A DNA stretch of 64,000 nt, taken from IMG/VR virus record IMGVR_UViG_3300021387_001774, positions 1 through 64,000 of that record. One strand, written 5' to 3'. The position numbers and the translations under genes were made by a program. The DNA comes from a virus. Taxonomy: Duplodnaviria > Caudoviricetes. The notes beneath the pieces are model-generated. The model was not told the DNA's origin, searched no databases, and was given only the letters and a program-made list of their open reading frames with translations. Below, piece after piece: positions 3,895 through 62,664 of this stretch (position 1 is its first letter; each line of letters begins with the position of its first letter).

Positions 3895-3908
3895 AACAAA
3901 ACTATATA
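3895..3908 (+). promoter_or_regulatory. Late-type promoter (NACA-N6-TATA)
   Basis: AACA-AAACTA-TATA upstream of 3936. Confidence 0.6.
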
Positions 3909-3935
3909 CTATTAATAAAGGGGATTTATTTTTTT

Positions 3936-5189
3936 ATGAAAAAGAATGAATTTAGACAAAAGATGTTAGAAATGCATAAAAATGATGCAGACATCTATAA
4001 GATTAAAAAGAAACATAATGATCTTGGAACAAATTCCAAGATCTCTTTAATTACATATAATAATAATGATGAATTATTAATAATTAAAGAAACAGAAGAT
4101 GGTAATCCTATAAAGGTTATTAAATCAAGTAAAGAAGATTTAGATCTTTCAAATGATACAAAGTTGACTACAGAATCACTGAATATGAATTCCAATAGTT
4201 TCACTACTAAACAATTAGAAAATATATTACCTACAGTTGATACTGTTATTAAAGATTCTGACGATAAATTGTATGGAATATCTTTTGGTAATATTAAACA
4301 AATCGGTGTTAGTGATTCTATAGACGAGTCTGTATCTTGTAAAGATCTCAATAGATGGGTAGAAAATTCTTTTAATTATGACGTAATAGATAAAGAGTTT
4401 AGTGATACAGCTATAGTTTATAATAAATTTCATTATCATGATTATCATTTTAATCATAAACTTAGAAAGAATAAAATGCAAGTAACTGATGAATTTGGTG
4501 ATACAGAATTATTAGTTTTAAGTAAAGAAAAACTGCATATTATGCAACATGGTACAGAAGAAGAGAAGTATTCTATTATTTTTGATAGATATTCATTAAA
4601 TAAGAATACTAGATACAGATTATTAAGTACAGCTCAAATTGTTGAATACGAAGGATATATAACATATTTTGATGGATTAAATACTAGACATGGTGAGTTA
4701 ATAGAGACTATGGAGAACGGTGATAAAAAGTTTCACGTTTATCACCCAAGTAATGTAGTAACAGGAATAAACGCCATAGAATCAAATACATATACATATG
4801 AATTTGAATTAATTTGTGGTCCAGATAATAGTTTGAAAAATTTTAAATTCCTCCAAAAACTCGACTATTGTAGGGTTATAGAGGGAAATGGCGAAAATAC
4901 GAAATTCGTCAATTACCTTCGTAATCCTATTAATCGTGGTCTAACACATATCGTAAGTGGTTACACAATACGTTTTGTATCATTACATACAACCGGTGGA
5001 GACTATTTTATTTACAAAACAAACGAACGTCTTACTAGAACTAAAACTTCTTGGGAATGGCACGGTTTGCAACACCGAAAATATGTTCATGATTATTATA
5101 CAACTTGGTATTATAAATTCGATAAATATAATAATCTTAGTTCATTATATTCTTCTAGTGAACGTAGAGATAGATGGTGGGATGATTAA
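3936..5189 (+). CDS. Hypothetical protein, likely late/virion
   Basis: 417-aa ORF, AAGGGG RBS, late motif upstream. Confidence 0.6.
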   Translation: MKKNEFRQKMLEMHKNDADIYKIKKKHNDLGTNSKISLITYNNNDELLIIKETEDGNPIKVIKSSKEDLDLSNDTKLTTESLNMNSNSFTTKQLENILPTVDTVIKDSDDKLYGISFGNIKQIGVSDSIDESVSCKDLNRWVENSFNYDVIDKEFSDTAIVYNKFHYHDYHFNHKLRKNKMQVTDEFGDTELLVLSKEKLHIMQHGTEEEKYSIIFDRYSLNKNTRYRLLSTAQIVEYEGYITYFDGLNTRHGELIETMENGDKKFHVYHPSNVVTGINAIESNTYTYEFELICGPDNSLKNFKFLQKLDYCRVIEGNGENTKFVNYLRNPINRGLTHIVSGYTIRFVSLHTTGGDYFIYKTNERLTRTKTSWEWHGLQHRKYVHDYYTTWYYKFDKYNNLSSLYSSSERRDRWWDD

Positions 5190-5354: not shown

Positions 5355-6953
5355 CTAAATAATCATTTTCTTATATAATTGAATTACATCATTAATGATT
5401 TTATCTTCACTAATCTGTATAGGCTTACCATTTATATCATCTCTTCCATAAAGATTATAATTATAGTTATTATGAACTAAACTACTAATCATATCTTTTA
5501 TGGGATTATTTTCATCGAATGATGTTGTCTTTATTTCGAACACACTTTGTACATATTTATACTTAAGTTCTATTAATTGCACATAATCGATATTATTTTT
5601 TAAATTCTTTAAAATAGTAGCACTAGGCATATTTGTAAATGTATAACTAACTCTAGTACCAGTTACAAAGTATGGAAGATATTTAATTCCAAGATCTTCC
5701 ATCTTCTTTATAAGTACAATCATCAATCTAATTAATTGATCTTGTGTACAAGACTTAACATTCACGCTACCAGAGAAAAATCTAGCGAAGACCATGGTAA
5801 CCACTTTGACTGTAAAATTATGCAATTTATAATTTTTCTTGTACCAATTGAACTCTTTTTCGTCTATATAGATGCTATTTCGACGACAAATTGTATCAAT
5901 TGCATCATCATTTGCATATCTATTTAGAATACTTATACTTTCGTCAATGTTACGGTAAAACATGTCAAATATATCAGATTCACTCAAAGCGTCTTCATCA
6001 TCATTACTATTATCATTATCGTTAATTCTATAACAGTCAAATGGATTATTTGCTCTAATTTTAAATCTATTAATAGAATCTCTAGATACTACTGTAATAA
6101 GGTGAATTATATATCTATCGAGATCAAATTTAGGTACAATAGTTGTTACAATCTTTACCACAAATTCATCAATAATTGATTCTCTAGTTTCATTATATTG
6201 TGGGAAGTTAGCCCAAATAGGTTTATTAGATGATTCTGTAGAACGTACAATACGATCAATATACTGATAAAGTTTATCCATAAGATTATTACAGTTTGAA
6301 TCAACGGTAACAATCTTGAATATTGAATCAAATACTGTAAACATAAATGAATAAACTTCGATATTTTTATCTGAGTTAATAAAGATATAATGTGTACACA
6401 ATGGAATAGCAAATTTAACTAACATAGAAATTGTGTAAAGTAATTTAAAATGCTCATTAGTGAATGTAGTACCTGGAGCATATTTTTCTGATTCTTTTTC
6501 ATCAACGAATGTTTTATAATGAGCTTCTACATATCCTTTTACTTCATTAATAAATGATGGTGTAAACAACGTAGTAATCATAAAATTGATAAAGTTCTGA
6601 TATTTACCAAAGTCTCTTCTAGCATCTACACCATAATGAAGTAGATCTTCTTCGGAATCCGTTTTCACAAATAACTTACTATCAATGGCTTTCTTTACAT
6701 TAAAGTATGACAGAATCACCTGTTGTGTTACTGTATAAGATATGGAAGAAAGAATTTTATTATTGTCTTTACACATCGTGTTAGCAAAGTTAGCATATAC
6801 TCTTTTCTTTCCAATAGCCATTTTAAAAGTATTATATACTTTAAGATCTGGATTCTTAAAAATTTCATCGAAATTAATAATGATATTCTTGTTTTTCTCA
6901 GTAAAGTATTTCACATTCTGCTTATTTCTTATAGTTTGTACATACTTAGGCAT
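5355..6953 (-). CDS. Probable promoter-specificity (sigma-like) subunit of the non-virion RNA polymerase, AR9 gp226 / phiKZ gp68-like
   Basis: About 530 aa, helical. The segment TFTNEHFKLLYTISMLVKFAIPLCTHY resembles a block I recall from this family (not verified by search). GGAGG RBS supports ATG 6953; an early-type motif lies upstream. Confidence 0.55.
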   Translation of the reverse strand: MPKYVQTIRNKQNVKYFTEKNKNIIINFDEIFKNPDLKVYNTFKMAIGKKRVYANFANTMCKDNNKILSSISYTVTQQVILSYFNVKKAIDSKLFVKTDSEEDLLHYGVDARRDFGKYQNFINFMITTLFTPSFINEVKGYVEAHYKTFVDEKESEKYAPGTTFTNEHFKLLYTISMLVKFAIPLCTHYIFINSDKNIEVYSFMFTVFDSIFKIVTVDSNCNNLMDKLYQYIDRIVRSTESSNKPIWANFPQYNETRESIIDEFVVKIVTTIVPKFDLDRYIIHLITVVSRDSINRFKIRANNPFDCYRINDNDNSNDDEDALSESDIFDMFYRNIDESISILNRYANDDAIDTICRRNSIYIDEKEFNWYKKNYKLHNFTVKVVTMVFARFFSGSVNVKSCTQDQLIRLMIVLIKKMEDLGIKYLPYFVTGTRVSYTFTNMPSATILKNLKNNIDYVQLIELKYKYVQSVFEIKTTSFDENNPIKDMISSLVHNNYNYNLYGRDDINGKPIQISEDKIINDVIQLYKKMII

Positions 6954-8532: not shown

Positions 8533-11500
8533 TTAGTAGAATATTATTATATTTAACTTTTGTATATTTCTATCAATTTCGCCAAATCCAAATCTAATAG
8601 TTCCAGGAGATTCTGTAAAGATTTCTTTAGAAAGATCAGAACGGAAATGTTTATCGATATTAAATACAAGAGTCTTGAAAGTTGTATTATTCACACCTGT
8701 GTGAGTTTCGATATGCATAGCAGATACATTAAATCTAACTCCGTCACAAATAAGTGAACCAACTACTTTCAATGTTTTATCGACAGGTATTTTTTGTGAA
8801 AGAATATTCTCTATAAGATCTGAATTATACTGTCTAGTAGTATCAGATGGTCTTACTATAGGATATCTTGCAAATCCCTGTGTAGCACTTATACTAAGTT
8901 CATCTGCACCATCACCATATTCTTTTATAATTTTTGTAGTTTTTTTCGTTAAATTAAATTCGACCAAATACCAACTATAATGACCATCCATATCATCACG
9001 ACTATATGGTGTATATATTATAGTATCGTCAGTTAAAATATCAAGTATCGGATTTGGATAATTTGGCTCTAATTTCTGGTTTCTAACAAATTCCATTAAA
9101 ATAAATATAGATTGCATTGTGCCATTATTTGGGAAAGTAACTGGAATATTTTTATATTCCGTATCTTCTTCTACAGTATTTGTTGTTCTAGAATATTTAT
9201 ATATTGCTGCAGTTTTACTAGAAATTAGTAATGGTCCTTTAACTGTATTTAATATGTACTCAAGGATAGCATAAGATCCTGTATCATTAACATCAAATGT
9301 CTTTACAACTATAAAGTCATTACCATTATACCAGAATACATAACTATTTCCATAATCAGTAACATGAGTTGTATCAGTAATACCTTTAGGTTCAGTACCT
9401 ACACAAATGAGACCTTCTAGAGTATTTTTCATATCATAAATACGTGCATACTTAGTATCCATTTCTACAAAATATCTTGGATCATGAATTGAAATAATTT
9501 CTGATCTGTTAGAATCTGGAATCATAATCAATTTATATAATTTATAAACTTCTTGTTCATCAAAGATATATTCTATGTATTCTTTTGTTTGTACAAATAA
9601 TGCTTCACCCATTTCCCATATGTCTGTAACACAACCTTTATTACCAATATGAATTGGAATAATAGAAGATGAACCTTCAGGTGTGAAATAGAACATACTT
9701 TCTACATTTCTGTAACTTCTAGGAGCATTATTGATATAGTTGAAATTGGATTCATTAAATTCAAAGTTGGTATTCAAACGTTTGTTTACAGCGTTTACAT
9801 AATCTTGACTTGTATAGCGGAATACACCATATCTTGTTTGCATATACTTGAGATACTTAGTAGAATCAAAAAGTATATCTCTCTTATAATCATCAACATT
9901 AGTAAAGAATAAATTCTTTCTATTTGTGAGATTAGCTACAAATAATTTAGTTTCTATATAAGAACCATCAGCACTACCAAACTTCATATATTTCATAGTA
10001 GTTCTATCCATATACATAGTAGGTTCCGCAATATCAACATACAAAGAATTTCTTTCGAAATCTAATCCTTCAACATTGCTACCAATCTTCTGATTTACAT
10101 TACTCTCTTCATTTGGATTATCAAGAGAAGAATCATATTTGAATTTAGTATAAGCTTGTAAACATTTGTTTTTACTATTCCATACTATCAATGAATATGT
10201 ATTTTCATAAACAATGTTGTTGGAAATAGCAATTACTTGAATATCAGAATCGGTAAGATTAAGATCTTCACTAGGAAGATAACCTTGATTCTTTATATAA
10301 TTTTTAAGATTTGTTCTTATCTCATTCTGAGAAATATCATATGTAAAGTTCTTTTCTTCGTTTATAGATAAAGTATCTCCTGCAGAAATGAGAGAATCAT
10401 AATCTATAGAGAATACTTTGAATACTGTAATTGACTGACTATAATCTAAATATCTTTCACCAGTATCGATATCATAATTAAATCTTGGGAATTTTCCATA
10501 GAATAATCCATAGACCTGAAGATCTGTATTATTTCTACCGATAATTACTGATTGCATATTAACATACTTAGGATCGAATTCTATAAATATATCTTGACCA
10601 GTTGTTCTATCTGTATAACCAGTTTTTACAACCTTAATACATTCGTTATTCTTATCGAATATACCAAATGCGTTATCTTGACCAAGAGCCATAACGATAG
10701 CAGATTTATTAGTATTAACAGTAGATGCAAAAGCAATCTTTTCTGAATTCAATTTGAAATCAGTTCTACCAGTAATACCATAAGAATTCAATTTAATAGT
10801 TTTATTTTCCTTATCGAAATAATAGCTATCAACTTTATTCTCTAAAGAAAGATTAGACTCTGTTAAATCATTAATATCGCAACCATATGAATGACGTTGT
10901 ACAATCAAACCGTATGAAGGAATGTTTGCAACAGAAGTACGTCTATTTTGTTCATTTACAACGTGAGAATTTATATCTTCTGTATTAATTATTGCACCAA
11001 TATCGTATAATACTGGATTAGTATAACGATCAATATTTTCAATCTTTTTAAGTTTGTCTTCAGCATTAACGGCTGTGAAATCAATTATGAACTTATTAGT
11101 TACGAAATCACTATTGTCTTGTTTCTTACCAGAAGTTACAAGTATAAATTTATCCTTTTCTACCTGTAATACTCCAGTATAAATCTTATCAATAGGACTT
11201 ATATCTTTATAGATTTCAGAATTCTTAACGAACGGCGTAATATTATATTCGATATTTCCAAGTGTATCAACGCTCTTTCTTATCATAAATACACCTTCAT
11301 TATTATCTACATTGTTTCGTATTGCCGTATTTGTACCAGAACCATTTATGAAGAATAGATCACCCTTGTATTCAAATGTATTATTAAAAGAATAAACATC
11401 CGAAATATCAATAGCTGTACTCTTTATAAACTCTTTTGTTTCTGGTTTATAAGAGTATTTATCATATGGATTTTCGAAATCATATGTAGAAACAACGATA

Positions 11501-14500
11501 TCATCATTATGTGGTTTGATATAATCGATAAAATCAACAGAAAGTTTTTCAACAAATTCAAACTCTGCAAGATTAAGTTTTCTAGTTTGTAAGTAATATA
11601 GCTTAGTTTTGTTATTGTCATCTTTACCATAAATAAAGAATCCGTCTCTATTCTGGAATCCATTTTCTACATAAATATCGAGATCAATGTGGGTTAAAGT
11701 ACCACTGAATGTTCCAGGTACCACCTCATCAGAAATCCAAATACCCTTATTATATTCAGATATGAAACAATATCTAATCTTTGAATTAGATAAAGTAGCT
11801 ATCAAGAAATCATTAGGATTAATACCATTTGAATTTCCAATTGTATATTTATCATTATTTATATGAAGTTCTATAAAACCGTCATCATCAAGTGTAATGA
11901 AATTATAGTTATCATTTATAAACTTCTTTTTGTGAGCATTTGTATCTTTTGTGGGACAGTAAGATTCGTCATAATCCTTATTTATAGCTATTGGATACAT
12001 TACTGTATTACCAACAACAAGGTTTCCAGAATCACGTAATTCTGTAACAGGATTATAACTAATTACTGAAGCCGGATACCAATGTTCATAGTCAGTTGTA
12101 AATAAGATCTTTCCAGTATTATTATCTGTAACATGAATTATATTATAACCTACTGTAGCATGAAGATTTCTAGACATACATGCTTTAGGATCAACTAATG
12201 GTGATGTAAAATCAGAAGCTATAGTTGGTAATCCATCTAATGATCTTCCAGTAATTACACCAGTATCAGTATTCTTAATTATATAGTAGTTATTATATGA
12301 ACCTACATGGAGTACTTCACGTGTACCAGCTTCTTCTGTCCAAGTATGACCAAAATCTTCTGATTTATAAGTCTTGTCATCAGTTCCAAGTAAATAGATA
12401 AAGTCTTTAGATACTTCGGAACCATTATCTTGTTTCCAAATAGAAACACAAGGATAGAATTTCTTTACACCAACATCGGCTGGAAGATTACTCTTAGTAA
12501 ATGTATCAGGATCATCCCAACCAGAATACCAAAGTCCAATAGCTGTAGGATCAGTTTTACCACTACCATACAAAATAACACCACGAAGATCATATCCATA
12601 TAATTTATAATCTTTTATCTTATCACCACTTAAATCCAAATCATTTACAGTAACTGTAGTCCATGAAGTAAACAATTCTTTAATATCAACTAAATTTGAA
12701 GTAGTTTCTGCATATTTGAGTTGATGGTTAGTAGAATCAAGTGCAAAATATCTATTATTATCAAAGAATAAATCTGTACAATCAAATCCAAGATTATATG
12801 AATGAATAGGATCATAATATTGTACTTCTTCTTGTGTTACATATGCTTCAGTATACTTAGAAGTAATATTTTCAAGACCAACATTATCGACCAATATACT
12901 TCCATATTCACCAACAAAGAAAATACGATTTAATCCAGTTGTATAAATTTTTGGATAATATGGTTGATCTTTCATATCTAGGAATATAATATCCATATTG
13001 GATTTTTTCCAGATAATACCATCTTTAGAATAGTAATATGTATGATCTGTAGATTTTTTATTAACCTTTACAGCATAGAAATACAAGAAATTATCATAGA
13101 ATACTTCAAATGAATCATCAAAAATGATTTCTTCATGAGTATTTTCTGTCATAGGTTTTACAAGTCTATGGAACACATCAGAGTTATATGAATAGAAAAG
13201 ACCATTCTTACCTATAGCAAGAGTTATGATATTATTAGAACAAATGCTTGTCCATTTTTCTTGATAAAGAATCTTTTTACCAACAAATTCATCTTCAGAC
13301 TTAGTAAGTTTTCTATAAACAATAGTTCTTTCTGTAGCATCTTTATTCAAGATATCTGTAGAAATATTAACAGTAAATAACATATAGAAATCACCATTAG
13401 CTACATCAGCATTATCTGGAATAATAATGATATCTACTGTATTTTCACTACGTTTAAGAATACCTACTCTGAATGAGTTAACAAATACAAGATTATTTTT
13501 AATATATTCGTTAATTGTTTGACATTTCTTAGACAAAATAGGATCATTAGATTTAATCAAATTATCAAGAATTGTTGGATCTTGCATTAAATCGTATTTG
13601 AATACTTCTGGATAATTTACATAAAGTTTTTTATTGTTGTAAATCTTAGGATTTTGACCAGGTTCTAGTTTATAATAATCGTCATTCTTAATAAATTTAA
13701 ATGGTTCCACCAATGAATCATCTATACCAAAAAGAACTTCGTTTTCGTTTAAATCAAATATTTCATAAACATCTCTATCGTTGATATATTCTTTAAATGA
13801 ACCATTTTTTTCGAGTTTATATAACGCATTAGTATCGTCATCTTTAATAAATTTAGTAAATTCTCCAAAATATTCTATTGGAGATCCTGTAAGTTGAAGA
13901 TCAATATCTGATGTAGAGAAATCTGTAATATCAATAAGTTTAGCTACTACATCTCCGTTGTTTTTATAATAAACGAAATCGTGTGTATCATCAAAACTGC
14001 TAATATACATATCTGTATTTTCTGCAATATCAGATACCTTTATTGTATTTGAAACTAATTGATCAGTCTCTATTTTACTAATATATGCGTACAATTCATT
14101 ATCATAAACATGATATGTACGTACTTGTTTAAGCTTGTTTTCTTCTATAGACTTTATAGGACCAATTAACTTAACGAAATTACCTGTAGAATCTTGTATC
14201 CATTCTTCCAGTAAACCATCATCGTTCTTATTATAGAGTCTACCATTAGAAATATATAATGGTGTATAATTATCGATAGTTATTTGATCTGATCCAGATG
14301 GATATGTACAGTTTGGTAATTTAGCTATACCTGATACATAACCACCATCTTGAGTTAATATCTCCGTAAAAGAAGAAGTATTTACAGTATAAAGATACGT
14401 TCTAACATCATCTGAAGAATCTTTACCTGTAATGAAATACTCGATATTTGGTTTATAAACTTCAAAATTATCGATAGAAACAAGATCTGTAGTAGAAATA

Positions 14501-17485: not shown

Positions 17486-17499
17486 TATATAGAAATGTC
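17486..17499 (-). promoter_or_regulatory. Late-type promoter
   Basis: GACA-TTTCTA-TATA; identical to the one upstream of 62613. Confidence 0.65.
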
Positions 17500-17553
17500 A
17501 TTTTACGGTATTATATAGAAAATTGTAAGAGGTTTTAAATAGTTATTATAAAT

Positions 17554-22900: not shown

Positions 22901-23372
22901 TAGCATTAATGATAACATCGTATGGAAGAGTGAATTTTGGATGTGATTCGAACACAATTTCCATATTTTTGTTTACACGTAACCTATAAACACCTTCAGC
23001 CGGTATATAAACCCCAAATTTTATGATTTCGTCTTTCTTGATACAGAATGCCATAGTTGTAGATGCAGGCGTTCCAAATACTCCAGCTAATTCTTCACTA
23101 GTAGTTTTATTTAATAGAGACTTTGGTAAAATAGCTGTAGCTATGTTAGTTTCATTAATTCTCGCTGCTTGTTCATACATCATTTTAGCTGCACCTTGAG
23201 CAGTCAAATGAGTAAAAATATTAAATGAACTTGCAGGATCATCGCTTAGACCTTCATAATCTTCCATAGCATATTTTTTGAAAGTGTCTATCCATTTTGC
23301 TGTAAGAGCCATAGCACTATTATGTGCATTAGCATCTAAAATATCTTTTATTTCAAGAGTTGTTTCTTCCAT
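19974..23372 (-). CDS. Baseplate wedge protein (T4 gp6/BplJ-like)
   Basis: 1132 aa. N-terminal NETNIATAILPKS...TPASTTM, central YTTQGTLGN and SSGGKDSLTFEELR, C-terminal IKNSVINYINSI: the layout typical of gp6-like proteins. Late motif upstream. Confidence 0.65.
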   Translation of the reverse strand: MEETTLEIKDILDANAHNSAMALTAKWIDTFKKYAMEDYEGLSDDPASSFNIFTHLTAQGAAKMMYEQAARINETNIATAILPKSLLNKTTSEELAGVFGTPASTTMAFCIKKDEIIKFGVYIPAEGVYRLRVNKNMEIVFESHPKFTLPYDVIINAKPITSKVYDPDTGAMENVTEYNIYAYYDMPSEANDGMRHVFNIYNQYISSRDMRFEGSTYVAFFLKIFQLERKEISLYVSNPYTSDTKIAFDNMLVGMEVFRKKINTTSEILMKGFTEGTSLYQNTYNYSYDNKRNSSNLNISFSKMNDSSALSVGDNLRFVVYTTQGTLGNIDFPFMIYNIDKLSVKYNQDLNDSTQNAMLNIICLAFARDQESSGGKDSLTFEELRAKLISKQYSRDILISNNEIIKKGQELGLSIKKVQQDLTAMYYQCSDKLKYKNMILSTGTSNLYFDLTKKEKLLRGYNYYLISPTDVFVFNPKTNRYEYVPEDSKNGGQVVDSYIDYVNKYNSSYNVDAIREVTFPFYMRFENTTNPKIQVYDMFVNTTEFLKFTFYNESTALDKLDISILKVVRNPYKGTISGSFDKTLSNKIFLSFLVYTGQNTLNKLYTQSHNPSISLNYVNNTNEDIYKKQYVTFEVGMEGTTTGEKYILDPTKVRIVNVDSMVKDGYIMYQAELETNNFISDDKEIQIKGIRNASSISKDYSVYIPVDTSVKFSVTGKFNDTENNPTNKECITYESDEVDLVHYLSESFGIDFDIESVIPGYETYDNDKFYLYDTNVYYKNPFYDPAETDVTKVNHYQLKVESLDGENVSFKIAGNQSIPTYVVAHKIGDVKFNYTELTPEEREEGPSEYKEYFVRVKESKLDSNGNEVYCIDENNEYIYEKINIEDDFDENITYYTKSAKIKHYAGELVYYNKNTGEIVDLPNAEAVQNINCETKSKPTEYIGICKNVPWINRLYMAGEYMYEVIHKLYTDIIDRSNEIKKNLFDGGKIYIGLNSTSGKSKKFKAYKLADGSEEYLNNIAMSFVFRVKYKEDTSLEYKEEQIKNSVINYINSIGDQDVSIDKMFDNIKSAVPDIVYINIEGMNTYKYGEVQTIMNDTSVIDEVLTVSQKMTTTETGDIDFEPNITVNVVTQE

Positions 23373-23395: not shown

Positions 23396-23409
23396 TATAT
23401 AGTAATGTT
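23396..23409 (-). promoter_or_regulatory. Late-type promoter
   Basis: AACA-TTACTA-TATA. Confidence 0.65.
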
Positions 23410-25544: not shown

Positions 25545-25613
25545 TATATACTTTTGTTTTTCATCAAAAGATATTATATCTATTAAATAAGTAGAGAAAA
25601 ACATCTTAATATA
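25545..25613. promoter_or_regulatory. Divergent pair of late-type promoters
   Basis: - strand AACA-AAAGTA-TATA (25545-25558) and + strand AACA-TCTTAA-TATA (25600-25613). Confidence 0.65.
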
Positions 25614-33009: not shown

Positions 33010-33061
33010 TATATAGATGTGTCTTACTATAATAGTTAATTTTAAAGCACATATTAATATA
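33010..33061. promoter_or_regulatory. Divergent pair of late-type promoters
   Basis: - strand GACA-CATCTA-TATA (33010-33023); + strand CACA-TATTAA-TATA (33048-33061). Confidence 0.6.
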
Positions 33062-36483: not shown

Positions 36484-36535
36484 TATATTATAGTGTCCTT
36501 CTTTATAATTTTTATAATTATATATTATATTAATA
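36484..36535. promoter_or_regulatory. Back-to-back late (-) and early (+) promoters
   Basis: - strand GACA-CTATAA-TATA (36484-36497); + strand AATTATATATTATATTAATA (36516-36535). Confidence 0.65.
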
Positions 36536-48113: not shown

Positions 48114-48216
48114 TTCATTTCTTCCTTATGTTTATAGTAGTGTCATCTCTACTTCATTAATTATATTATTAATAAGATACAACGTATCTTTCATTAATAT
48201 AATATATAATTAAAAA
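48114..48216 (-). repeat. Early promoter + 5' stem-loop leader cassette, family A copy 2
   Basis: Near-identical to 2918-3016. Confidence 0.85.
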
Positions 48217-48739: not shown

Positions 48740-50014
48740 TTACATTTTATTGAGTCTTTTAGCAGCATCGTTAATTCTATTATATTGATCACGTTTCTCT
48801 TGCCTAGAACGTAGTTTATGTTCACCATCAGGATAAATTTCAGCATATTTATTATTTTCATCAAGTTTCTTATGACTAAGACCAGTCTTATATCTAGTAT
48901 CTCTATGTGCAGCTTCTACCTCAAGCATTTCTTTAATAGCTTTAACACCAAGATTATCTATACGAAGAATCATATCGAAATAGATATTAATACAATCTAT
49001 AAGATATGCTTTTCTACTCAATAATTCTTTACAAGAAGCATTGATACCATCCCAAATAGAGTCTAGTATTTTACCATTATCTTTTTTATTTTCTATATCC
49101 GCATTCTTGAAATTAGCAAGACACTTATTTTTTCTTTCTTTTATTTCATTCATAACTTTATTATCTACTGTCTTGCTAAGAACAGCTTGACACATATTAG
49201 ATACGTTGAAAATATCTTGTTTATCAGCATCTGCAAGAATATCGAATGAATCAGGACTTCTAAAAATATTTTTTACTGATTGTTCTTGAGGTTCTTCTTC
49301 TGGATTTTCTACAAATAATGTTACTATTAAGTGATTAGGTTTAGGATATCCTTTAAGAACAATATTTTTAGAAGTATATCCATACACTTGTGTATCTCTA
49401 TTACTAAGTAATATTTTTGCAATTTTATATTTAGTTGAATGTAAAATCTTCTCTTTCCAAGTTTGTTTATCTTTATTTACTTTAGAACCAGATACAGTTT
49501 GAGATAAAGCATCTTTACAATATGCTTGTACTACCGGAATAGCTGCTTCAGCAGTAGTTTTTGTTTCTAGTTCTTTAGACATTTTTGTAACAGTTTCATA
49601 AAGACTATTAACATTCTTAACTAAAGAACGAATATAATTTTGAGCAGGTCCTTTAAGAATTGTAACTGGATCATCGACCATATTGTTTTCTTTTACTCTA
49701 GCTTGATCACCATATCTTTCATATAAACCAGATTTAACACGATCTAGATATCGTTTATAAAAAAATCTATTCTTATTTTTTCTAGCAAACATTCTAGCAC
49801 GTTTATTAATCGTCTCTACTTTACCTGGAAGTTCATGTAAATAATCAAAAACACCTTTACCTTTATTCTTTACCTTATCTACTTGCATCATATGATTTTT
49901 GTTAGGTTCTCCATCATTTTTAGGAGCTTCTGGAGCTTTAGCGGGTTTTTCTTTTTGATTATTTTCCATATCTTTTTCTATAGAATATTGTAAATCATTA
50001 AAATCTATAATCAT
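48740..50014 (-). CDS. Putative virion (head) protein
   Basis: AAGGA RBS supports ATG 50014 (the ORF-track extension crosses promoters and terminators); N-terminal YSIE motif; late motif at 50039-50052; terminator at 48712-48737. Confidence 0.55.
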   Translation of the reverse strand: MIIDFNDLQYSIEKDMENNQKEKPAKAPEAPKNDGEPNKNHMMQVDKVKNKGKGVFDYLHELPGKVETINKRARMFARKNKNRFFYKRYLDRVKSGLYERYGDQARVKENNMVDDPVTILKGPAQNYIRSLVKNVNSLYETVTKMSKELETKTTAEAAIPVVQAYCKDALSQTVSGSKVNKDKQTWKEKILHSTKYKIAKILLSNRDTQVYGYTSKNIVLKGYPKPNHLIVTLFVENPEEEPQEQSVKNIFRSPDSFDILADADKQDIFNVSNMCQAVLSKTVDNKVMNEIKERKNKCLANFKNADIENKKDNGKILDSIWDGINASCKELLSRKAYLIDCINIYFDMILRIDNLGVKAIKEMLEVEAAHRDTRYKTGLSHKKLDENNKYAEIYPDGEHKLRSRQEKRDQYNRINDAAKRLNKM

Positions 50015-50038: not shown

Positions 50039-50052
50039 TATACTAATATGTC
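50039..50052 (-). promoter_or_regulatory. Late-type promoter
   Basis: GACA-TATTAG-TATA. Confidence 0.6.
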
Positions 50053-50176: not shown

Positions 50177-51244
50177 TTATGTTTGAGATGTTTCTTGTTG
50201 ATTTGATACAGTGATATTTGGAGATAAGAATTTAGTTCTTATTTGATCCAATAAAATACTTATTGAGTCTTTTATTTCTGTATCAATGATATTTAATTTA
50301 TTTGTTTTCTTCTCGATGATATTTTTCTTCAAGTTTCCAAGACGTACAAACATATTCTCTAACTGTGGTTGAATATCTTTTGTAACTTTTATTATTAATT
50401 CATCGAGTTCTTTTTTGCTGATAGCTGTAACTTCAAGTTTCTTCACATCAATTGCTTGCCATATAAGTTCATCCAATTCATCTATATAATTGGAAGCTTT
50501 TCTCCTATCATCAACTATTTCAACAAATCCGTTACGAGAAATAATATCTTTACTATGATCTATCCATAACATTTCTACGTTACTTAATAAATCATCCATA
50601 AAAAAATATTCTTTGGTTTTATGAATTTCCGAATTATTGAAACCTGTTATATCGACTATATAATTTAATAATTCTGTATAATAAGAATTTTTAATAGAAG
50701 AAAATGTATTTCTAAAAATCATTTCACATTGATGTGTATAATTCATCTCTAATGAATGGATACTATTTGTAACATCTATCGTTTTTGAAATACTTGATGA
50801 AAGTTCTGTCTCTAATAAAAGTTCTAGCATAGATAAAAATTTATCTACATTAAATTCTTTTATTTGAGTCTCATCATGTTTTTTATAATTTCTATTCTTT
50901 ATCTTAAATTTACCAAATTCAATATATTCAGAATTATCAAATCTTTTTAATATTCCTTTTATAATAAGTGATAAAAATAAAATTATTGCATAAAGTAAAA
51001 AAACTACACATATACAAATAACTATTACGAACCACAAGTTATCTTTTAAAATAGTAAATATGTAATCGTACATATCTGCATTTATAACTTTAGTAACCAT
51101 AGGTTCCATTTGTATTATTTGTGCATTTTGTCCATATATAATAGCTTGTTTTTCTTTTTCATCAATACTCGTTTGTGAAAACGTAAAAGAAAAAGTTAGT
51201 GAAAAAATACAAACTAATGTTAATATCTTTTTAACATAACGCAT
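50177..51244 (-). CDS. Late membrane protein: signal peptide, short external segment, one TM helix, helical cytoplasmic domain
   Basis: MRYVKKILTLVCIFSLTFSFTFS-Q signal-like N-terminus; TM LWFVIVICICVVFLLYAIILFLSLII; late motif GACA-TGTTAA-TATA at 51270-51283. Confidence 0.6.
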   Translation of the reverse strand: MRYVKKILTLVCIFSLTFSFTFSQTSIDEKEKQAIIYGQNAQIIQMEPMVTKVINADMYDYIFTILKDNLWFVIVICICVVFLLYAIILFLSLIIKGILKRFDNSEYIEFGKFKIKNRNYKKHDETQIKEFNVDKFLSMLELLLETELSSSISKTIDVTNSIHSLEMNYTHQCEMIFRNTFSSIKNSYYTELLNYIVDITGFNNSEIHKTKEYFFMDDLLSNVEMLWIDHSKDIISRNGFVEIVDDRRKASNYIDELDELIWQAIDVKKLEVTAISKKELDELIIKVTKDIQPQLENMFVRLGNLKKNIIEKKTNKLNIIDTEIKDSISILLDQIRTKFLSPNITVSNQQETSQT

Positions 51245-51326
51245 TTCAATCCCCATAATAATGATCTAGTATATTAACATGTCAAAAAATAAAAGGTGTG
51301 TAACATAAATTACACACCTAATATTT

Positions 51327-54723: not shown

Positions 54724-57700
54724 TTACATATCATCGAATGGATAATATGGTAAATAAGATACATGTTTATTTAGTTTCTTTAGATACCACGAATTAGAAA
54801 GTCTGATAGAGTTGATCTTTTCTTCTTCGGCTGTCTCTATAGGAGAACCAAAGATAACTAACTCTATTTCAAATTGCTCATCATCGAATATTGAACCGCC
54901 ATTTTCTGTCGGTTTCAATGGATCTGAAGAACTCATGTATAAATCATTCATTATGTCGTCTCTACGTTTAAATAAATGATTATTCTTATTGTTTTCCCAA
55001 TGTGTAACATAATACTTCTTATAGAATTCCACAAGTGTCATTCTTCTAGAATGTAATAAGTCTACATCTGATTCATATTCGTTGTTATTATCGATGAATG
55101 TTTCTTTAAAATCACTCGTTTCGTTATACAAACCGAATATTTTTCTAATATACTTATCTCTAAGAGTATTAGTTTCATCGGTTAATTCATTATTCCATTT
55201 CTTACTATTTCTACCAATAAACGTATAAAGATATCCAATATGTTTAATAGTATTATCTTCTTCAACCTCTTTTTTCACTTCCTTGATGTTAAATCCATTA
55301 AGGATAAGCCTATCTTTACAGTTGTAGATATAAATACCATTATACTTCATAATACCTGTAATAATACCATTTACATTAGATACAGTTTTAATTAATGATG
55401 GTTCCATTTGAAGACCATATCCTTTATCCGTAATATCAAACTTAATAAATCTCAATACTGTGTTTAAACGTGTACGTTCAGTATAATCATTAACTATAAC
55501 TTCATAAGGTCCATTTGTCGATTTAAGTATATGAATTTTTCTAATATCCAAAGATGTATTATCTAATGTAATATAATTAGTAGCCATTATGTTGTTTTGT
55601 ACTGTTTGGATACCTGTTGAGCTATCGGTTTCCTCATGTCTATGTACAAAGCGTATGAAATAAAGATAAGTTTTAACTGTACCATCAGTATCAGCCTGAT
55701 TGCCAATCTTATAACACATATTTGCTTCATCGAAAATACAATGAATAGCAAACTGATAAATAGATCCATCTTCGGTTGTATAAGTTCTTTGTATAATCTT
55801 ATTGAAGTTAACTTTAGAACAATCAGCTCTATTATCACCTGTGTTATTTAGTCTTATATCAACCTTCCACTCTTTTGTATTTGTATCATATTTAAGACCA
55901 TAAGTTTTATTATCTTCAGCAGTTACAGTCATATAGAACAATGGAGCTTCACCGTTAAATTCGATGAAGTCATCAAGTTTTGTTATAATATGATTGTTTA
56001 CTGATGTAGGTGTAGTAATTTTTTCTTTTCTAGTAATATTATACATTGAATTATCATGTGTAAGTATAAGAACACCTAATGAAGTCTCCCTAATCACTGT
56101 CATATAATCAGTAAGTTCATAATGAAGTTCCATTACTTTTGTTTCTTTATTATACTTATACACATTATGTACTCCATCGACAGTAGCGAAGTAATACATA
56201 TCATTATTCTCAGTAACAAAGAGTTTAGTATAATATTTATCAATTATTTCATCTTCATCTATTCTATTTATTGTGTTAATATTTACACGCTCTGTATCAG
56301 TAAAATCGAGAATCTTATCAAATGTATAAGTTGTTTTATTAAACCTATAAACATACTTGTAACAAAGATATACTTCTCCATCAACTTCTTGAATAATAGG
56401 TTTAATGTTTTGATTACCTGACCATTCAGGAAGAGCTACAATATATTTAAAATCGTTATTGTTTGAATAGATTTCATTGAGACAAATCTCAAGACCTCTA
56501 ATACCAAATAGACCAAGAGATGTATTATATAATCTATCAAAATTAACATTTTTGTATTTTAGTTCATTATTTTGACCATATACTATATATTTCTTATCGT
56601 AAATAGGTTTAAGATTATCTGTTCTAGCCTTGGCAAACGTATAATACAATTCATCATCATTTGAAACTATTGGTAACTGATTACTCATTAAAACTGATTC
56701 ACCATTATCATCAATTGATGCTTGCTGTAATGTGTAAATATTCTTTTCATTATCGTATAAACTGTATGGATCAATAGATATTTCAGAAAAATCGTATATT
56801 CTTGAATGTTCTTTAGTCTTATTTATAAATACAAACTCTTCTTTATTTATTCCAGGATATGTTTCATCGTTAATACAAATTGACTCAACATTATCGTGTA
56901 TAGTCAATTCTGTTGGATCTGCAAAATAAGTTAACTCTTTTGTCTTTAAATCATAGATCACGTTACGTGAATAGTTAATAAACTTATCGCCAAGAAGAGT
57001 AAAGTTTGCATCATAAAGTAAGTATTGTAAATCTACATCATCAAATGGTTCAAGAGCATCGTCATATAGTCTATAAATACTATATTTTGTACCAAAGCAG
57101 AAGATTAACAATTCAATTCTTCCATCATCACGAGTATGTTTGAAAGCATTGACAATCATTGCTCCACCTACATCTATACTAAGTGGATCACCAAATGCTT
57201 TAGTATCATTTATTCCGTGTTTATAAACATACATTGTACCATTAACTGAAGTATCAAGAGAAACACCATAGATGTTACCGTTTTCGAATTCAGTAATATA
57301 ATGATAATCTTTTCTACTAGATACATCTGTTTCTGACCATTTTAATGTTTCACCATCGATAATATATGTATTGAATATATTCTTTTGAGTATCTCTTAAG
57401 GTTACGAATACATATTTAGAAGTTTCGTTTACTTCAATAAGTGGTTCATCATTACCTTCGTCAATGATATAATCAAAGTATTCTTCTTCAACATATTTAA
57501 GATCATCAGAAATACGTTCAATAGAAAGAACGCGTTTACCTGTTGAATAGGCTCTAGTTTCTATACCAAGTTTGAAGAACTTAGTAGTGATAACTTTATC
57601 ATATGTAATAGGAAGAAGATGATTAATGATATCATTTCTATACATATCTTGCATAAATAATGAAATATCTTCATAACTATAAGCTAACTCATGCTCATTA

Positions 57701-60700
57701 TAAGGATTATTACCTACATTATTGTCATATATCATACGTTTTGTATAATATACTGTATCTGGAGCCCAAGCTTCAAATGGATCAGTAGCTACTTTACTAT
57801 ATACTCCATCTGCTTCAGTATAGTATTCTACACCACTTCTAGGAGCAAGTTCAGAAGTCTGATCTACTATTTCGTAAACTTCTCTACCTGTACTAGCAGG
57901 AATCTTTATAAATAACTTATCATCCATAAATCTAAAGTTAGATTTATCAAAATTGAAAACATATTTTTCAGTATTTAACTCATAATAAAACAAATCTGTA
58001 TTTGACTTAAATAAATATGGATTAATAGATGCTGTATCAGGATCAACATTTTCTACGAAATCATCAGATGTACATTCTGTAAATTGTGGATTTACACAAG
58101 TAAACAGTAATACACCTTCAGGGTTATCTTTATTGACCCAATCAGGATTAAAGTTATTCTCGGGTTTGATATAATCTTCAGGTGTTAGAAGCTGATATAT
58201 AGCATCATCAATATAATAATCGGCTAATTTATCAAACTCTGTAATATCATACTGTTCATCAAAGTTTCCATTAAGATTCATCTTGTAATACTTGAATCCT
58301 CTAATTGGTTCTTTTACAACAGTCTTATCGATCTTTATTTTTGTATTATTACGTTTTACAGTACGTTTGAAAAGTTTAACCATATTAATATTTGATCCTG
58401 GTGGATAACTTTGTGCTCCAGAAGAATACAAATTAAATATAGTTTTACTTGGATCAAGTTTGTAGTAAGTTTTAATTATGTTACCACTAATAGTCATTGG
58501 ATATTCATCTTTTGTAACACTTGGTGTAGCAATCATATCGCTTAAAGTGTTATTTACACCAACTTTATACATGATGTTTGGAACAACGTTCTGCTCTACA
58601 GTTGTTAAATAAAGATCATTGTGACCTTCTACAGTATGTTCGGCTAGAGAATAAGATTTATATTCAACTTCTTCTTTTTCACCAATTTGTGTTACAATCT
58701 TATGAGGTTTAGAAACCAGATAAGGTCTATTAGTATTATTAGTTTCTTTTAGTGTAGTTATAGTATCATCCTGTACGAAATATCTTGCATAAACATCGTG
58801 TGAACTTATATTCAAGAATTTTTGATACTTATCATAATATAATTCGAGATAACCATTTTTAATGTCTGGTATAATTGTTTCAATACTATCATTTGTAACA
58901 TCCAATTTGAATAATGCTGGATAATATGGTCGCATTTGTACATAAGCAAGAACATCTTCAATAAATTCATAACCACCATAAATATCATAGTGATCATTGT
59001 TCTTCACTTCTACGAGTCGCATTATTCCTTCGCCAGATACACTATAATCTAGCTGATGTATAGATGGAATAAATTTATCAGAAACTGGATCATATTTACA
59101 AATGTATGGATGTTTATTGTTATTAACTACAGCTAAAATACATTCATGGAAATCATAGAATTCAACATTAGAATCTAATATTCCATCCAATGGACCATGC
59201 AATGGTAAAATAGAACCATTAGAATCCATTGTCAAATGCTTTTCACCACGAATAACATATTTTAGATGATAAATATCGTCGACTTCATGGTTCAAACCAA
59301 TGATATGATAATTGTTTCCAATCTTAATTACATTAATTATTTTAATTGTACTAACATCGGAAACAACATCTTCAAATATTGTAGTTAATGAATCATACTG
59401 TACAAATTGTTGACTAACACTATCATATCTATAAATATTTTGATTACCGTTAACAGAAATCCAAGCGAGTACTTCACCATCTTTAGTCTTAGTTATATTA
59501 GTGAGATTTTCGCTATCAACTTGACAGATAGAAACTTTATTATTATCTGTGAATGGTGTCGTATAAGTACCATCGTCGTCTCTAGCAAAAGTTTTATAAA
59601 CGTATTGTCCATTTGTAATAAATGATGTACCACGTTTATCATCAAGACAAATTATCTTGAATAAATTTTGAGTTGTAAAATCACAATTTACGAGTTCCAA
59701 CCATTTAAACTTAGTATCAACATTATCATTTGGAATTTCTTCGGTTAAAGCTGAATTACTTATCCATACAACGTCGTAGCTACTGTCTACTCCAGGTACA
59801 TTATGAAGTTTACAACAAGCGTATCTACCATATTTAGTATCTATAATACGCTCAACTTGTGGTTTATTTGGTGTATAAGTTCCATATTCTATATGCTTAA
59901 AAGGCTCAAACTCACTATTATTTGATTCATAAGTTACTGGACCTTTTATATAAACCATATCGTTTCTGAATTTTTCATATTCTTTTCTAACGATTTCGTG
60001 TATGGTATCTACAGCATCTTTGTAAGTAAATGTATCGTCAGCTTTATGAATAATCTTAAGCTTCTTGATAGCATTTATATCAGAAATTCTGCTCTCTGAT
60101 TTATCTAAAGAAAGTATATTATCATACTTTACAAATCCGTATTTGTTTGGAGAAATACAATACTTTTGAGAATTATAATCTGGATTTTGTATCACAGAAT
60201 AAGTAGATACTTCGTCATACGAAATATTATTATCTTCGATAGTATTATACAATACAGAAAGATGATCAACGAATGAAATATACAAAATACTATGGAAATC
60301 AATTACTGGTAATTCTTCATCGTATTTCTCAACATTTTCGTCATACAACTGATAATCACTAGTAAAAAGATCAAGATATTCATATCTCAATTTGTTTCCA
60401 CTGTATTCTTTCAATACATAATCATTTTTATAAATACTGTATTTTTGAATAGCTGCTGTTTTATCATCTATAGAAATAAGAATTCCACTTCTTCCATATT
60501 TATCAAAAGATGGAAGATATTTCAATACTTCACTATTGTTATCAAAGAATAGTCTACAAGTTATATTCTTACTTTCATCTACAGTATAAAGACCTTCTTT
60601 ATCTATAATAATTACTCCATTTGGAGTATCTACAACATCTTTAACATTCTGAAGATAAGCATTGTCAATAAGATAATATTCGTCCTGATTTGTTTCAGGT

Positions 60701-62613
60701 TTCATATAAAGAATAGAATTCTTATCAGACCATCCTTTATTTTCTACTTCTTCAAATGTTATAGCTTTAGTAATCCTTTGTTCATCAAATACAAAAAGTT
60801 CGTTATTTTCAAGAATCAAGAAATTAAACAATCTTGTTTTAATCATCTTCTTAATCTTATTTCTAAGATCAGAAGTATTATTATTTAGCTTATTGAATAC
60901 AGTCAATAAACTATTCTCAGTAAACAAATAACTGATTCCTGATATAACTAATTTGCTAGCATTAATAATGAATGAATGACTGGAAGATTCACCTATATAG
61001 TTAGCTCCAATATACAAGCCTGTAACATCAGAGAAACCGAATAATTCTGAATCTACTGGATTAATAGTATTGATTTTTTCTACAGGGAAATCTTCAAATT
61101 CATGTTCTGGGGACATGCTAAGATTAGTAGAATAAAGATTTGTTTCTTTATCCTTTTCTTTAATTCTATAACAAAGTTTATCTTTTTCAGTATAAATAAG
61201 AACAAGATCTGTATCATTATACTCCAAAACCATGCTCTTCTGACCAAATGTAGCATCAGAATTAGTTAAAGAATAAATCTGTTGATCAAGAATTGTATTA
61301 GAATTAGTATCAAAATAATGATAACTATTTCCAATCTTAGCAAGAATTTCATCTGATGAAAGACGAATAAAATCATCAACAGGTCTACCTAAATCATAAA
61401 GGTTATTAACATTATTAATACCTACAAAACAAGTATCATAATCATTATCTTTAAGACGAATGAATGTAAAATAGCCAATATCTTTTACCCAGAATTCTTT
61501 AATAGTTGAACCAGAATTATGTTTAATATTATCTTGAGAAGCAAGTACACGATTATCGAAAGTATTTCCATCAGATAAGATAGAAATTTCATTACGTATT
61601 TTATCGACGATAAAGGTACAAGCAAGATTATTAGAATGATAAGCATCTTCTATATTATGTGAACCTACTGCATCTGTAGCTCCATAAGTATAATCCATCT
61701 TTTTAAAATTAGTATCTAATGTACCATCGTCATTGTTTATAAAAGTCTTTCTAGCAACGTAACGATAAGGAACTATTTTACCAATATGAACTTTCAATCC
61801 ATTCTCGTTATTTGTATTATCAAATGTAAAGTAAAGATCAAATTGTGGTCCATTATCAAAAATATAAGAAACATCTCCTGTTTCTTTATATGAATGTACA
61901 TCAATAAGTTTTTTATCAATAATGTTACCAGTATTATCAGAATTATTAATGATAGCTTTGATAATAAATTCATCTGGATGATTAATTGGATCATGTCTTA
62001 TAAGGAAGAAACGACCAGATATAATTCTAGTAACAGTTACTGTTGGTTCTCTAGAAATATTCTTATCAGCATCAAACATAATTATGTCTGGATACTGTTT
62101 ATAAGTGAATGAGAACTCAATAATTTTAAGATATTCTTTTAGTGAAGTATTGAATGAGAATGTTAACATATTAGCATTAGGATCAATTACTTTTGAACCA
62201 CGTAATGCTAAGTTAGGCGTATCATTATTCAATTCAATAGATTTATTAATAAAATCGTAAGTAGTATACTTTGTATCAGCTCTTGTACCCTTTATAGCCA
62301 TAACTGATGGATGAGAATGTGTATTCTTTATATCATCAGGTACAAGATTTTCTTGAGCTACATCTACTCTATCAATTTGTGTATGTACACCCTGTACGTA
62401 GGCATCAACACCATATTCTCCAACGATTTTATCATTTACAAAATTAAGTTTACTATTAATTTCTTTTACTATATCATCAAGCTGTTTGTTGATATTTTCA
62501 AGAGATAATGAAACTTCATCATTGGAATAAATTCGTTTAGCTTTATTTTTTACTTCTTCTTCATACGCTTTTGTTACGTACATAAGGTTTGAAGAATCGG
62601 GAGATCCAGCCAT
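54724..62613 (-). CDS. Giant virion protein, tail fibre/receptor-binding-like, beta-propeller-rich
   Basis: 2629 aa; recurrent ETxxG/DTxxG blade-like motifs; AAGGAG RBS; late motif identical to that of 8533..17448. Confidence 0.55.
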   Translation of the reverse strand: MAGSPDSSNLMYVTKAYEEEVKNKAKRIYSNDEVSLSLENINKQLDDIVKEINSKLNFVNDKIVGEYGVDAYVQGVHTQIDRVDVAQENLVPDDIKNTHSHPSVMAIKGTRADTKYTTYDFINKSIELNNDTPNLALRGSKVIDPNANMLTFSFNTSLKEYLKIIEFSFTYKQYPDIIMFDADKNISREPTVTVTRIISGRFFLIRHDPINHPDEFIIKAIINNSDNTGNIIDKKLIDVHSYKETGDVSYIFDNGPQFDLYFTFDNTNNENGLKVHIGKIVPYRYVARKTFINNDDGTLDTNFKKMDYTYGATDAVGSHNIEDAYHSNNLACTFIVDKIRNEISILSDGNTFDNRVLASQDNIKHNSGSTIKEFWVKDIGYFTFIRLKDNDYDTCFVGINNVNNLYDLGRPVDDFIRLSSDEILAKIGNSYHYFDTNSNTILDQQIYSLTNSDATFGQKSMVLEYNDTDLVLIYTEKDKLCYRIKEKDKETNLYSTNLSMSPEHEFEDFPVEKINTINPVDSELFGFSDVTGLYIGANYIGESSSHSFIINASKLVISGISYLFTENSLLTVFNKLNNNTSDLRNKIKKMIKTRLFNFLILENNELFVFDEQRITKAITFEEVENKGWSDKNSILYMKPETNQDEYYLIDNAYLQNVKDVVDTPNGVIIIDKEGLYTVDESKNITCRLFFDNNSEVLKYLPSFDKYGRSGILISIDDKTAAIQKYSIYKNDYVLKEYSGNKLRYEYLDLFTSDYQLYDENVEKYDEELPVIDFHSILYISFVDHLSVLYNTIEDNNISYDEVSTYSVIQNPDYNSQKYCISPNKYGFVKYDNILSLDKSESRISDINAIKKLKIIHKADDTFTYKDAVDTIHEIVRKEYEKFRNDMVYIKGPVTYESNNSEFEPFKHIEYGTYTPNKPQVERIIDTKYGRYACCKLHNVPGVDSSYDVVWISNSALTEEIPNDNVDTKFKWLELVNCDFTTQNLFKIICLDDKRGTSFITNGQYVYKTFARDDDGTYTTPFTDNNKVSICQVDSENLTNITKTKDGEVLAWISVNGNQNIYRYDSVSQQFVQYDSLTTIFEDVVSDVSTIKIINVIKIGNNYHIIGLNHEVDDIYHLKYVIRGEKHLTMDSNGSILPLHGPLDGILDSNVEFYDFHECILAVVNNNKHPYICKYDPVSDKFIPSIHQLDYSVSGEGIMRLVEVKNNDHYDIYGGYEFIEDVLAYVQMRPYYPALFKLDVTNDSIETIIPDIKNGYLELYYDKYQKFLNISSHDVYARYFVQDDTITTLKETNNTNRPYLVSKPHKIVTQIGEKEEVEYKSYSLAEHTVEGHNDLYLTTVEQNVVPNIMYKVGVNNTLSDMIATPSVTKDEYPMTISGNIIKTYYKLDPSKTIFNLYSSGAQSYPPGSNINMVKLFKRTVKRNNTKIKIDKTVVKEPIRGFKYYKMNLNGNFDEQYDITEFDKLADYYIDDAIYQLLTPEDYIKPENNFNPDWVNKDNPEGVLLFTCVNPQFTECTSDDFVENVDPDTASINPYLFKSNTDLFYYELNTEKYVFNFDKSNFRFMDDKLFIKIPASTGREVYEIVDQTSELAPRSGVEYYTEADGVYSKVATDPFEAWAPDTVYYTKRMIYDNNVGNNPYNEHELAYSYEDISLFMQDMYRNDIINHLLPITYDKVITTKFFKLGIETRAYSTGKRVLSIERISDDLKYVEEEYFDYIIDEGNDEPLIEVNETSKYVFVTLRDTQKNIFNTYIIDGETLKWSETDVSSRKDYHYITEFENGNIYGVSLDTSVNGTMYVYKHGINDTKAFGDPLSIDVGGAMIVNAFKHTRDDGRIELLIFCFGTKYSIYRLYDDALEPFDDVDLQYLLYDANFTLLGDKFINYSRNVIYDLKTKELTYFADPTELTIHDNVESICINDETYPGINKEEFVFINKTKEHSRIYDFSEISIDPYSLYDNEKNIYTLQQASIDDNGESVLMSNQLPIVSNDDELYYTFAKARTDNLKPIYDKKYIVYGQNNELKYKNVNFDRLYNTSLGLFGIRGLEICLNEIYSNNNDFKYIVALPEWSGNQNIKPIIQEVDGEVYLCYKYVYRFNKTTYTFDKILDFTDTERVNINTINRIDEDEIIDKYYTKLFVTENNDMYYFATVDGVHNVYKYNKETKVMELHYELTDYMTVIRETSLGVLILTHDNSMYNITRKEKITTPTSVNNHIITKLDDFIEFNGEAPLFYMTVTAEDNKTYGLKYDTNTKEWKVDIRLNNTGDNRADCSKVNFNKIIQRTYTTEDGSIYQFAIHCIFDEANMCYKIGNQADTDGTVKTYLYFIRFVHRHEETDSSTGIQTVQNNIMATNYITLDNTSLDIRKIHILKSTNGPYEVIVNDYTERTRLNTVLRFIKFDITDKGYGLQMEPSLIKTVSNVNGIITGIMKYNGIYIYNCKDRLILNGFNIKEVKKEVEEDNTIKHIGYLYTFIGRNSKKWNNELTDETNTLRDKYIRKIFGLYNETSDFKETFIDNNNEYESDVDLLHSRRMTLVEFYKKYYVTHWENNKNNHLFKRRDDIMNDLYMSSSDPLKPTENGGSIFDDEQFEIELVIFGSPIETAEEEKINSIRLSNSWYLKKLNKHVSYLPYYPFDDM

Positions 62614-62650
62614 AATCTATACTCCTTTTGATTGAAATCAAGATATTTGG

Positions 62651-62664
62651 TATATAGAAATGTC
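62651..62664 (-). promoter_or_regulatory. Late-type promoter
   Basis: GACA-TTTCTA-TATA. Confidence 0.65.

Follow-up and report, generated by a model that had tools for sequence, protein, structure and literature searches.

The stretch analysed here (the window) covers the initial 64 kb of one 263,686-bp IMG/VR virus contig, IMGVR_UViG_3300021387_001774 (G000), derived from an uncultured phage. It carries the motif ACA-N6-TATA in front of genes on both strands, as well as a gene (5355-6953, minus strand) for the putative reader of this motif, a predicted homologue of gp226 of Bacillus phage AR9. The contig has a G+C content of 29.5% (~70% A+T) and an estimated completeness of 94%; ~44 of its genes are common to AR9, at a median identity of 28%, and 16 are common to phiKZ, with which no chimallin-like match was found by BLAST. 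In AR9 and PBS1, late promoters have the consensus AACA-(6N)-TA/G, of which the last purine is the transcription start, and they are read by a five-subunit non-virion RNA polymerase (nvRNAP) that includes gp226 (PMC5312081, PMC5449584, PMC9209446; PDB 7S01, 7UM0, 7UM1). Open reading frames (ORFs) were called and their starts were refined by ribosome-binding site (RBS) before intergenic DNA was defined, and the bases of the motif are numbered as in AR9.

Late-type motifs of the window and the genes behind them

The eleven NACA-N6-TATA sites that a first-pass annotation had listed in the window were all present (the plus-strand coordinates include the N at -11), and they are treated here as predicted late promoters, with scores from a position weight matrix (PWM) built from the sites. 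On the minus strand, the GACA-N6-TATA site at 17486..17499 (score 20.5) precedes a giant ORF of 2971 aa (8533-17448), whose orthologue in the related genome G002 also has the motif, and the site at 62651..62664 (score 20.9) precedes a second giant ORF of 2629 aa (54724-62613). The sites at 23396..23409(-) and 25545..25558(-) lie before 19974-23372 (1132 aa; homologue of AR9 g212) and 23456-25528 (virion structural protein; homologue of AR9 g213), respectively, and a divergent site at 25600..25613(+) lies before 25645-27024 (virion structural protein; homologue of AR9 g214). Similarly, the site at 33010..33023(-), before 30698-32989 (virion structural protein; homologue of AR9 g205), is accompanied by a divergent CACA version at 33048..33061(+), with a score of 12.8, before 33085-34521 (478 aa, no assigned function). 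The remaining minus-strand sites are found at 36484..36497, before 35579-36460; at 50039..50052, before 48740-50014 (424 aa from its RBS-supported start), with an early-type promoter further upstream at ~50123; and at 51270..51283, just after a hairpin and before 50177-51244 (355 aa, no assigned function). Finally, the AACA-N6-TATA site at 3895..3908(+), with a score of 18.2, is positioned 27 nt before 3936-5189 (417 aa, no family match), and a hairpin is located immediately upstream of it. Two further intergenic matches occur in the window, i.e., a second, weaker copy at 17514-17526(-) and an antisense match at 23389-23401(+) that overlaps the site at 23396(-).

The functional labels given earlier to the downstream genes were borne out in part. 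Three of these genes match virion structural protein families and one (35579-36460) weakly matches a head maturation protease, while the labels 'baseplate', 'tube-like', 'head' and 'fibre' were not confirmed. No family match was obtained in Pfam or PHROG for the two giant ORFs of the window, nor for several of the other downstream genes. Elsewhere in the contig, two more giant ORFs stand behind high-scoring late-type motifs (64312-72747(-), 2811 aa, and 82696-89916(-), 2406 aa), the first of which weakly matches the AR9 tape measure protein g204.

Frequency, consensus and conservation of the motif

Across the whole window, the 13-mer ACA-N6-TATA was found 32 times, compared to 33.5±6.0 in dinucleotide shuffles, and is not enriched. 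In intergenic DNA, 13 copies were present in the 3,556 nt of the window versus 2.1±1.5 in shuffled sequence (maximum 9 in 500 shuffles), and 56 copies in the 23,463 nt of the entire contig versus 10.1±3.2 (maximum 22 in 300 dinucleotide shuffles of the same segments), and the signal is thus one of position relative to genes. The contig holds 128 matches in total, 56 of which fall in the 8.9% of the sequence that is non-coding, corresponding to densities of 2.39/kb in intergenic and 0.30/kb in coding DNA. Within 100 nt upstream of start codons, 51 copies are in sense and 17 in antisense orientation, in agreement with the proposed orientation toward the gene; 47 genes of the contig have a copy in this interval, and the distance from the 3' end of the motif to the start codon is usually about 14-38 nt. 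Depletion of the motif inside genes was marginal (49 sense copies versus 58.8±7.4, and 22 antisense copies versus 33.3±5.9) and was not used as evidence. The consensus is strict, since the PWM turned up essentially no near-variants.

The base preferences of the motif were determined with only ACA-N6-TA forced, in intergenic sites 10-60 nt before a start codon, using the same pipeline for the contig (n=50), G002 (n=53) and AR9 (n=58). As a positive control, AACA-N6-TA was recovered from AR9, with 59 upstream copies. At -11, the contig displayed G20/A17/T7/C6 and G002 G28/A16, whereas AR9 has A in 52 sites. Moreover, A at -2 (45/50 in the contig, 47/53 in G002), T at +2 (46/50 and 49/53) and A at +3 (45/50 and 45/53) are preferred in both genomes, and none of these three positions is conserved in AR9. 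On basis of these unforced positions, the motif is described as RACA-N5-ATATA, which confirms the variant specificity, i.e., a relaxed -11 and an extended start, that had been suggested for the window.

Relatives were reached through the alignment of the gp226-like family, whereas the use of a 690-aa virion protein as query found none in IMG/VR. Two such IMG/VR contigs were analysed whole: G002 (276 kb, 99% complete), which has 117 reciprocal best hits with the contig at a median protein identity of 47%, and G001, a 90-kb fragment. G002 has 46 upstream copies of the motif. Among motif-bearing genes with an orthologue in G002, the motif was kept in 28 of 35, while 8 of the orthologues of 82 motif-less genes have it (odds ratio 37, P=1.3e-13); retention was also seen with G001 (8/2/3/29, P=5e-5). 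For the eleven promoter-bearing genes of the window, nine G002 orthologues carry the motif. In the 28 orthologous site pairs, spacer positions -7 to -3 are identical in 29-46% of cases and position -2 in 86%, and the ACA and ATATA blocks are thus conserved within otherwise diverged DNA. The link to AR9 is weaker: orthologues of motif-bearing genes carry AACA-N6-TA there more often than other orthologues (10/8/5/21, odds ratio 5.25, P=0.02). As judged from its sequence, the motif is a genuine and conserved promoter-like element of the AR9 late type. High-scoring copies that lie inside genes or far from same-strand starts, at 102807(-), 261076(-), 106594(-) and 261830(-) of the contig, may be internal or antisense late promoters, by analogy with AR9, for which 13 internal and 7 antisense late promoters have been described (PMC5312081).

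The predicted reader, the promoter scheme and the base of the DNA

The first-pass annotation had also proposed that 5355..6953(-) encodes a homologue of gp226 and gp68, a sigma-like promoter-specificity subunit of nvRNAP. The gene encodes 532 aa from the ATG at 6953, which stands behind GGAGG and agrees both with the coordinates first given for the gene and with a 532-aa database homologue. As a single sequence, the protein matched only PHROG 25005 'RNA polymerase' (E=4.6e-6) and, among sequenced phages, phiR1-37 g245 (tblastn E=1e-6), which is annotated as RNA polymerase (NC_016163); phmmer with the 538-aa ORF alone found nothing relevant in PDB, and Pfam (E≤0.01) and NCBIfam gave no match. 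A family profile built from 18 homologues recognised chain A of 7S01 (the same in 7UM0 and 7UM1) over most of its length with E=2.9e-12, AR9 g226 (annotated as a non-virion RNAP subunit) with E=1.4e-10, and phiR1-37 g245 with E=1.2e-20, while nothing, gp68 included, was found in phiKZ. An AlphaFold2 model (mean pLDDT 75.5) had as its three best Foldseek matches 7s01_A (9.4e-14), 7um0_A (2.4e-11) and 8que_B (4.8e-7), the last being PHIKZ068 (phiKZ gp68). Profile and predicted structure together indicate that the 5355-6953 product is a true homologue of AR9 gp226 and phiKZ gp68. Compared to gp226 it is ~70 residues longer (532 versus 464 aa), with an identity of ~15% in the structural alignment. 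The family comprises 436 representatives at 50% clustering (E≤1e-3). One truncated database homologue of 355 aa (P0037) has a precomputed match to Pfam Sigma70_r4 (PF04545), which the protein of the window does not have.

Homologues of all four nvRNAP core subunits are encoded elsewhere in the contig, as expected from the suggestion that this phage has an AR9-like system. By reciprocal best hits, checked against the AR9 annotation, beta-C was assigned to 163153-165732 (AR9 g089), beta-N to 132315-133826 (g105), beta'-C to 115874-118000 (g154) and beta'-N to 185113-186600 (g270). The beta' and beta subunits of the virion RNA polymerase (vRNAP) were assigned in the same way to 225520-227211 (g145) and 231289-236136 (g189). 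Consistent with two sets of multisubunit beta/beta' homologues, Pfam Rpb2_6 and Rpb1_2 were each found at two loci of the contig. The late-type motif is present before both vRNAP genes, the tail sheath homologue and several virion protein homologues, and it precedes none of the five nvRNAP subunit genes; upstream of 5355-6953 only a degenerate early-like element was seen.

A second promoter class, tTTTtTAATTATATATTATATtAATG, is represented by 60 intergenic sites in the contig, 53 of which have a G six nt after TATATTAT. Its core matches the AR9 early consensus, AAATATATATTAT-(6N)-G+1 (PMC5312081), as well as the early promoter annotated in the AR9 record, and the element, AATTATATATTAT-N6-G, is nearly identical to that of AR9. 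A site of this class precedes, among others, the nvRNAP beta-C gene. Conservation of the exact word at G002 orthologues was not seen, and G002 may therefore use a slightly different early consensus.

This promoter layout mirrors the AR9 scheme, in which injected vRNAP serves early promoters and nvRNAP serves late promoters. RACA-N5-ATATA, of which ~47 copies are found 15-40 nt before start codons in the contig, is proposed to be the non-early (late) promoter, and it is probable that it is read by the phage's own five-subunit nvRNAP acting on thymine DNA. The most likely reader would consist of the split beta and beta' subunits plus the gp226-like product of 5355-6953. The virion RNAP would read the early promoter TAATTATATATTAT-N6-G (60 copies), leading to expression of the nvRNAP genes, after which nvRNAP would express the virion genes, the subunits of the virion RNAP among them. 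In analogy to AR9, the gp226-like subunit and beta-N would jointly recognise ACA (-10 to -8) on the single-stranded template, and the first A of TATA would be the transcription start, giving 5' untranslated regions of ~17-41 nt that include the RBS.

The correspondence with AR9 includes ACA at -10 to -8, the 6-nt spacer, T(-1)A(+1), and the location of the sites a few tens of nt before the starts of virion and virion RNAP genes. As in AR9, the motif stands before virion/late genes and is absent before nvRNAP genes, a distribution known here from sequence alone. In AR9, gp226 and the beta-N subunit gp105 bind the template strand 3'-UUGU-5' at -11 to -8; the -10 U is pocketed between gp226 I207 and gp105 R363, the -9 G stacks on Y210, and the -11 U is packed without space for a C5 methyl group (PMC9209446). 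The gp226 residue V206 bars the methyl group of thymine, and the V206G mutant accepts T; V206 was reported to be absolutely conserved in gp226 of deoxyuridine (dU) phages (PMC9209446). The beta-N R363 of this pocket is conserved in the phage studied here, inside a YR motif, and the I-W of the 2.1bis helix is retained in the 5355-6953 protein. From the alignment, ACA would be read at the same place by a homologous subunit with a different pocket chemistry. In contrast to AR9, -11 is G or A here, and its commonest template base is C; a template C, which like U has no C5 methyl group, would suit a thymine genome, and this fit is tempered by the 17 of 50 sites with a template T at -11.

Several points weigh against the proposed reading. 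The AR9 pocket residues are not conserved: P251 stands in the place of V206, clade members have P/L/K/V/R/A at this position, and Y210, F261 and Y263 are not retained. Recognition may therefore differ in its detailed chemistry. The motif also precedes some genes for non-structural proteins, e.g., a primase homologue (112299-113372) and an endonuclease homologue (201720-203108), and 'late' may mean 'non-early'. Moreover, no clean early promoter stands before the gene for the gp226 homologue, and the start site and timing of late transcription are derived by analogy. Finally, because no thymidylate synthase was found, the case for thymine DNA is an indirect one.

The base of the DNA distinguishes the proposed reading from its strongest competitor, in which the same promoter and enzyme operate on a deoxyuridine genome, as in AR9, PBS1 and phiR1-37, and recognition needs a template-strand uracil at -10. 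This possibility, raised with the initial annotation, is favoured by the fact that the closest characterised relatives of the reader subunit (phiR1-37 g245 and AR9 gp226) come from dU phages, by the genes in common with AR9 (~44) and with phiKZ (16), by the missing chimallin-like match to the latter, and by the absence of ThyA and ThyX among the genes found, as had been anticipated for such a genome. Against it stands a canonical dUTPase at 194866-195483(-) (Pfam E=2.7e-25; TIGR00576 110.2 bits versus a cut-off of 102.55), which is conserved in G002, whereas no dUTPase-family match was found in the dU phages AR9 and phiR1-37. Its five motifs (AGYDL, RSS, GRIDSDYRGE, RIFQ and RGEGGYGST) are recognisable by eye, while strict regular expressions for them gave no match. 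In addition, the deaminase and the inhibitor of uracil-DNA glycosylase (UDG) that such a genome was expected to encode were not found: the contig yielded no homologue of AR9 Ugi (g104) or dCMP deaminase (g221), no PF00383 match and no UDG, with the absence of Ugi being weak evidence because Ugi is small and fast-evolving. The uracil-selecting V206 of gp226 was not kept either: Pro occupies this position here, the clade varies at it, and V is present in 32 of 111 alignable family representatives; phiR1-37, a dU phage, keeps the AR9 signature SD-x-V-IW-x-Y. Furthermore, at -11, where AR9 requires a template U, the template base is mostly C. A dU genome is considered unlikely because of the dUTPase, the lack of Ugi, dCMP deaminase and UDG matches, and the non-conserved V206 position, and the DNA is therefore probably thymine-containing. 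With respect to the dUTPase gene itself, its product begins with an extension of ~60 residues, most notably rich in E, R and K, and the gene is preceded at 20 nt by a weak late-like site, ACATATACTTATA.

Far less probable is that host RNA polymerase, with a housekeeping sigma factor or modified by the phage, reads the motif, with ATATA as a -10-like element and the gp226 homologue irrelevant. T4-type phages use a lone -10-like late element, and ATATA does resemble an AT-rich -10 hexamer. Nevertheless, none of the positions -25 to -6 before ACA showed -35-like conservation (information content <0.35 bit), and a distance of 5 nt between ACA and ATATA is compatible neither with a -35 element nor with the TG of an extended -10. 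Both the sequence and the spacing of the motif agree with AR9 AACA-N6-TA (PMC5312081), the phage has genes for two complete sets of multisubunit RNAP as well as an early promoter identical to that of AR9, and phiKZ-related phages transcribe without host RNAP (PMC7598289). That a short AT-rich pattern has simply found matches by chance in AT-rich intergenic DNA, which the unremarkable window-wide count (32 versus 33.5) and the 70% A+T of the genome might suggest, is refuted by an intergenic excess of ~14 standard deviations over dinucleotide shuffles of the intergenic DNA itself, by the constraints on orientation and distance, by the unforced conserved positions -2, +2 and +3, and by retention at orthologues of 47% protein identity with diverged spacers.

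The phage-encoded, thymine-based system preferred here also has features in common with phiKZ, of which the late promoter 5'-TATG-3' (-3 to +1) is read by the beta-like gp123 on the non-template strand (PMC12809450). In the phage studied here, the sigma-like subunit is structurally homologous to gp68, and a short conserved element overlaps the start site, TATA and TATG differing in the last purine only. Unlike the situation in phiKZ, an upstream -10-like ACA element is present, and beta-N has no detectable sequence similarity to the phiKZ genome (tblastn with the beta-N homologue and with AR9 gp105 gave no match). A tentative and rather doubtful extension is that the clade has a hybrid mode bridging AR9 and phiKZ, in which the AR9-like ACA element is read by a retuned gp226-like pocket that accepts T at -10 and favours C, a pyrimidine without a methyl group, at -11, while the phiKZ-like TATA start element is read by the beta-like subunit. 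Dependence on uracil would then have been added in one lineage to an older promoter code for which the difference between thymine and uracil does not matter.

Published knowledge of the AR9 late promoter and of its reading from the template strand comes from a single cultured lineage of dU phages; for phiR1-37 no late promoter consensus was obtained (PMC5312081), and an AR9-type late promoter with an altered consensus outside dU phages was not described in the literature searched. The AR9-type code can be recognised in an uncultured phage and its relatives from their sequences alone. The shifted consensus (G/A at -11, ATATA start), combined with a gene content that points to thymine DNA, would constitute a natural experiment on change of the uracil-selecting pocket of gp226, and the late promoter provides a ready rule for the annotation of transcription units in the clade.

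Early-type sites and neighbouring genes

In the window, sites of the early class are located at 2274(-), 2999(-), 6977(+), 28513(+), 36521(+), 48199(-), 48693(-), 50123(-), 53492(-) and 62698(+). The variant site at 48131-48143(-) (ACACTACTATAAA) was rejected as a late promoter, as it belongs to a repeated leader downstream of early promoters. This repeated element, GTAGAGATGAYACTACTATAAACATAAGGAAG, is present downstream of early promoters at ~6-8 other places as well, e.g., at 82091(+) and 137875(-) of the contig; it holds a near-match to the late motif and resembles part of a 5' leader that small early genes have in common.

The DNA polymerase is encoded in two parts by distant genes, as it is in AR9: 43704-45482(-) in the window, a homologue of AR9 g132 (exonuclease and partial catalytic part), and 156530-158638(-) in the contig, a homologue of g152 (catalytic subunit), neither of which is preceded by the late motif. 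Finally, the product of 40456-41070(-) in the window displays 44% identity to the HNH homing endonuclease g271 of AR9, which is located within the intron-split beta'-N gene, and also matches a phiKZ region beside RNAP genes.

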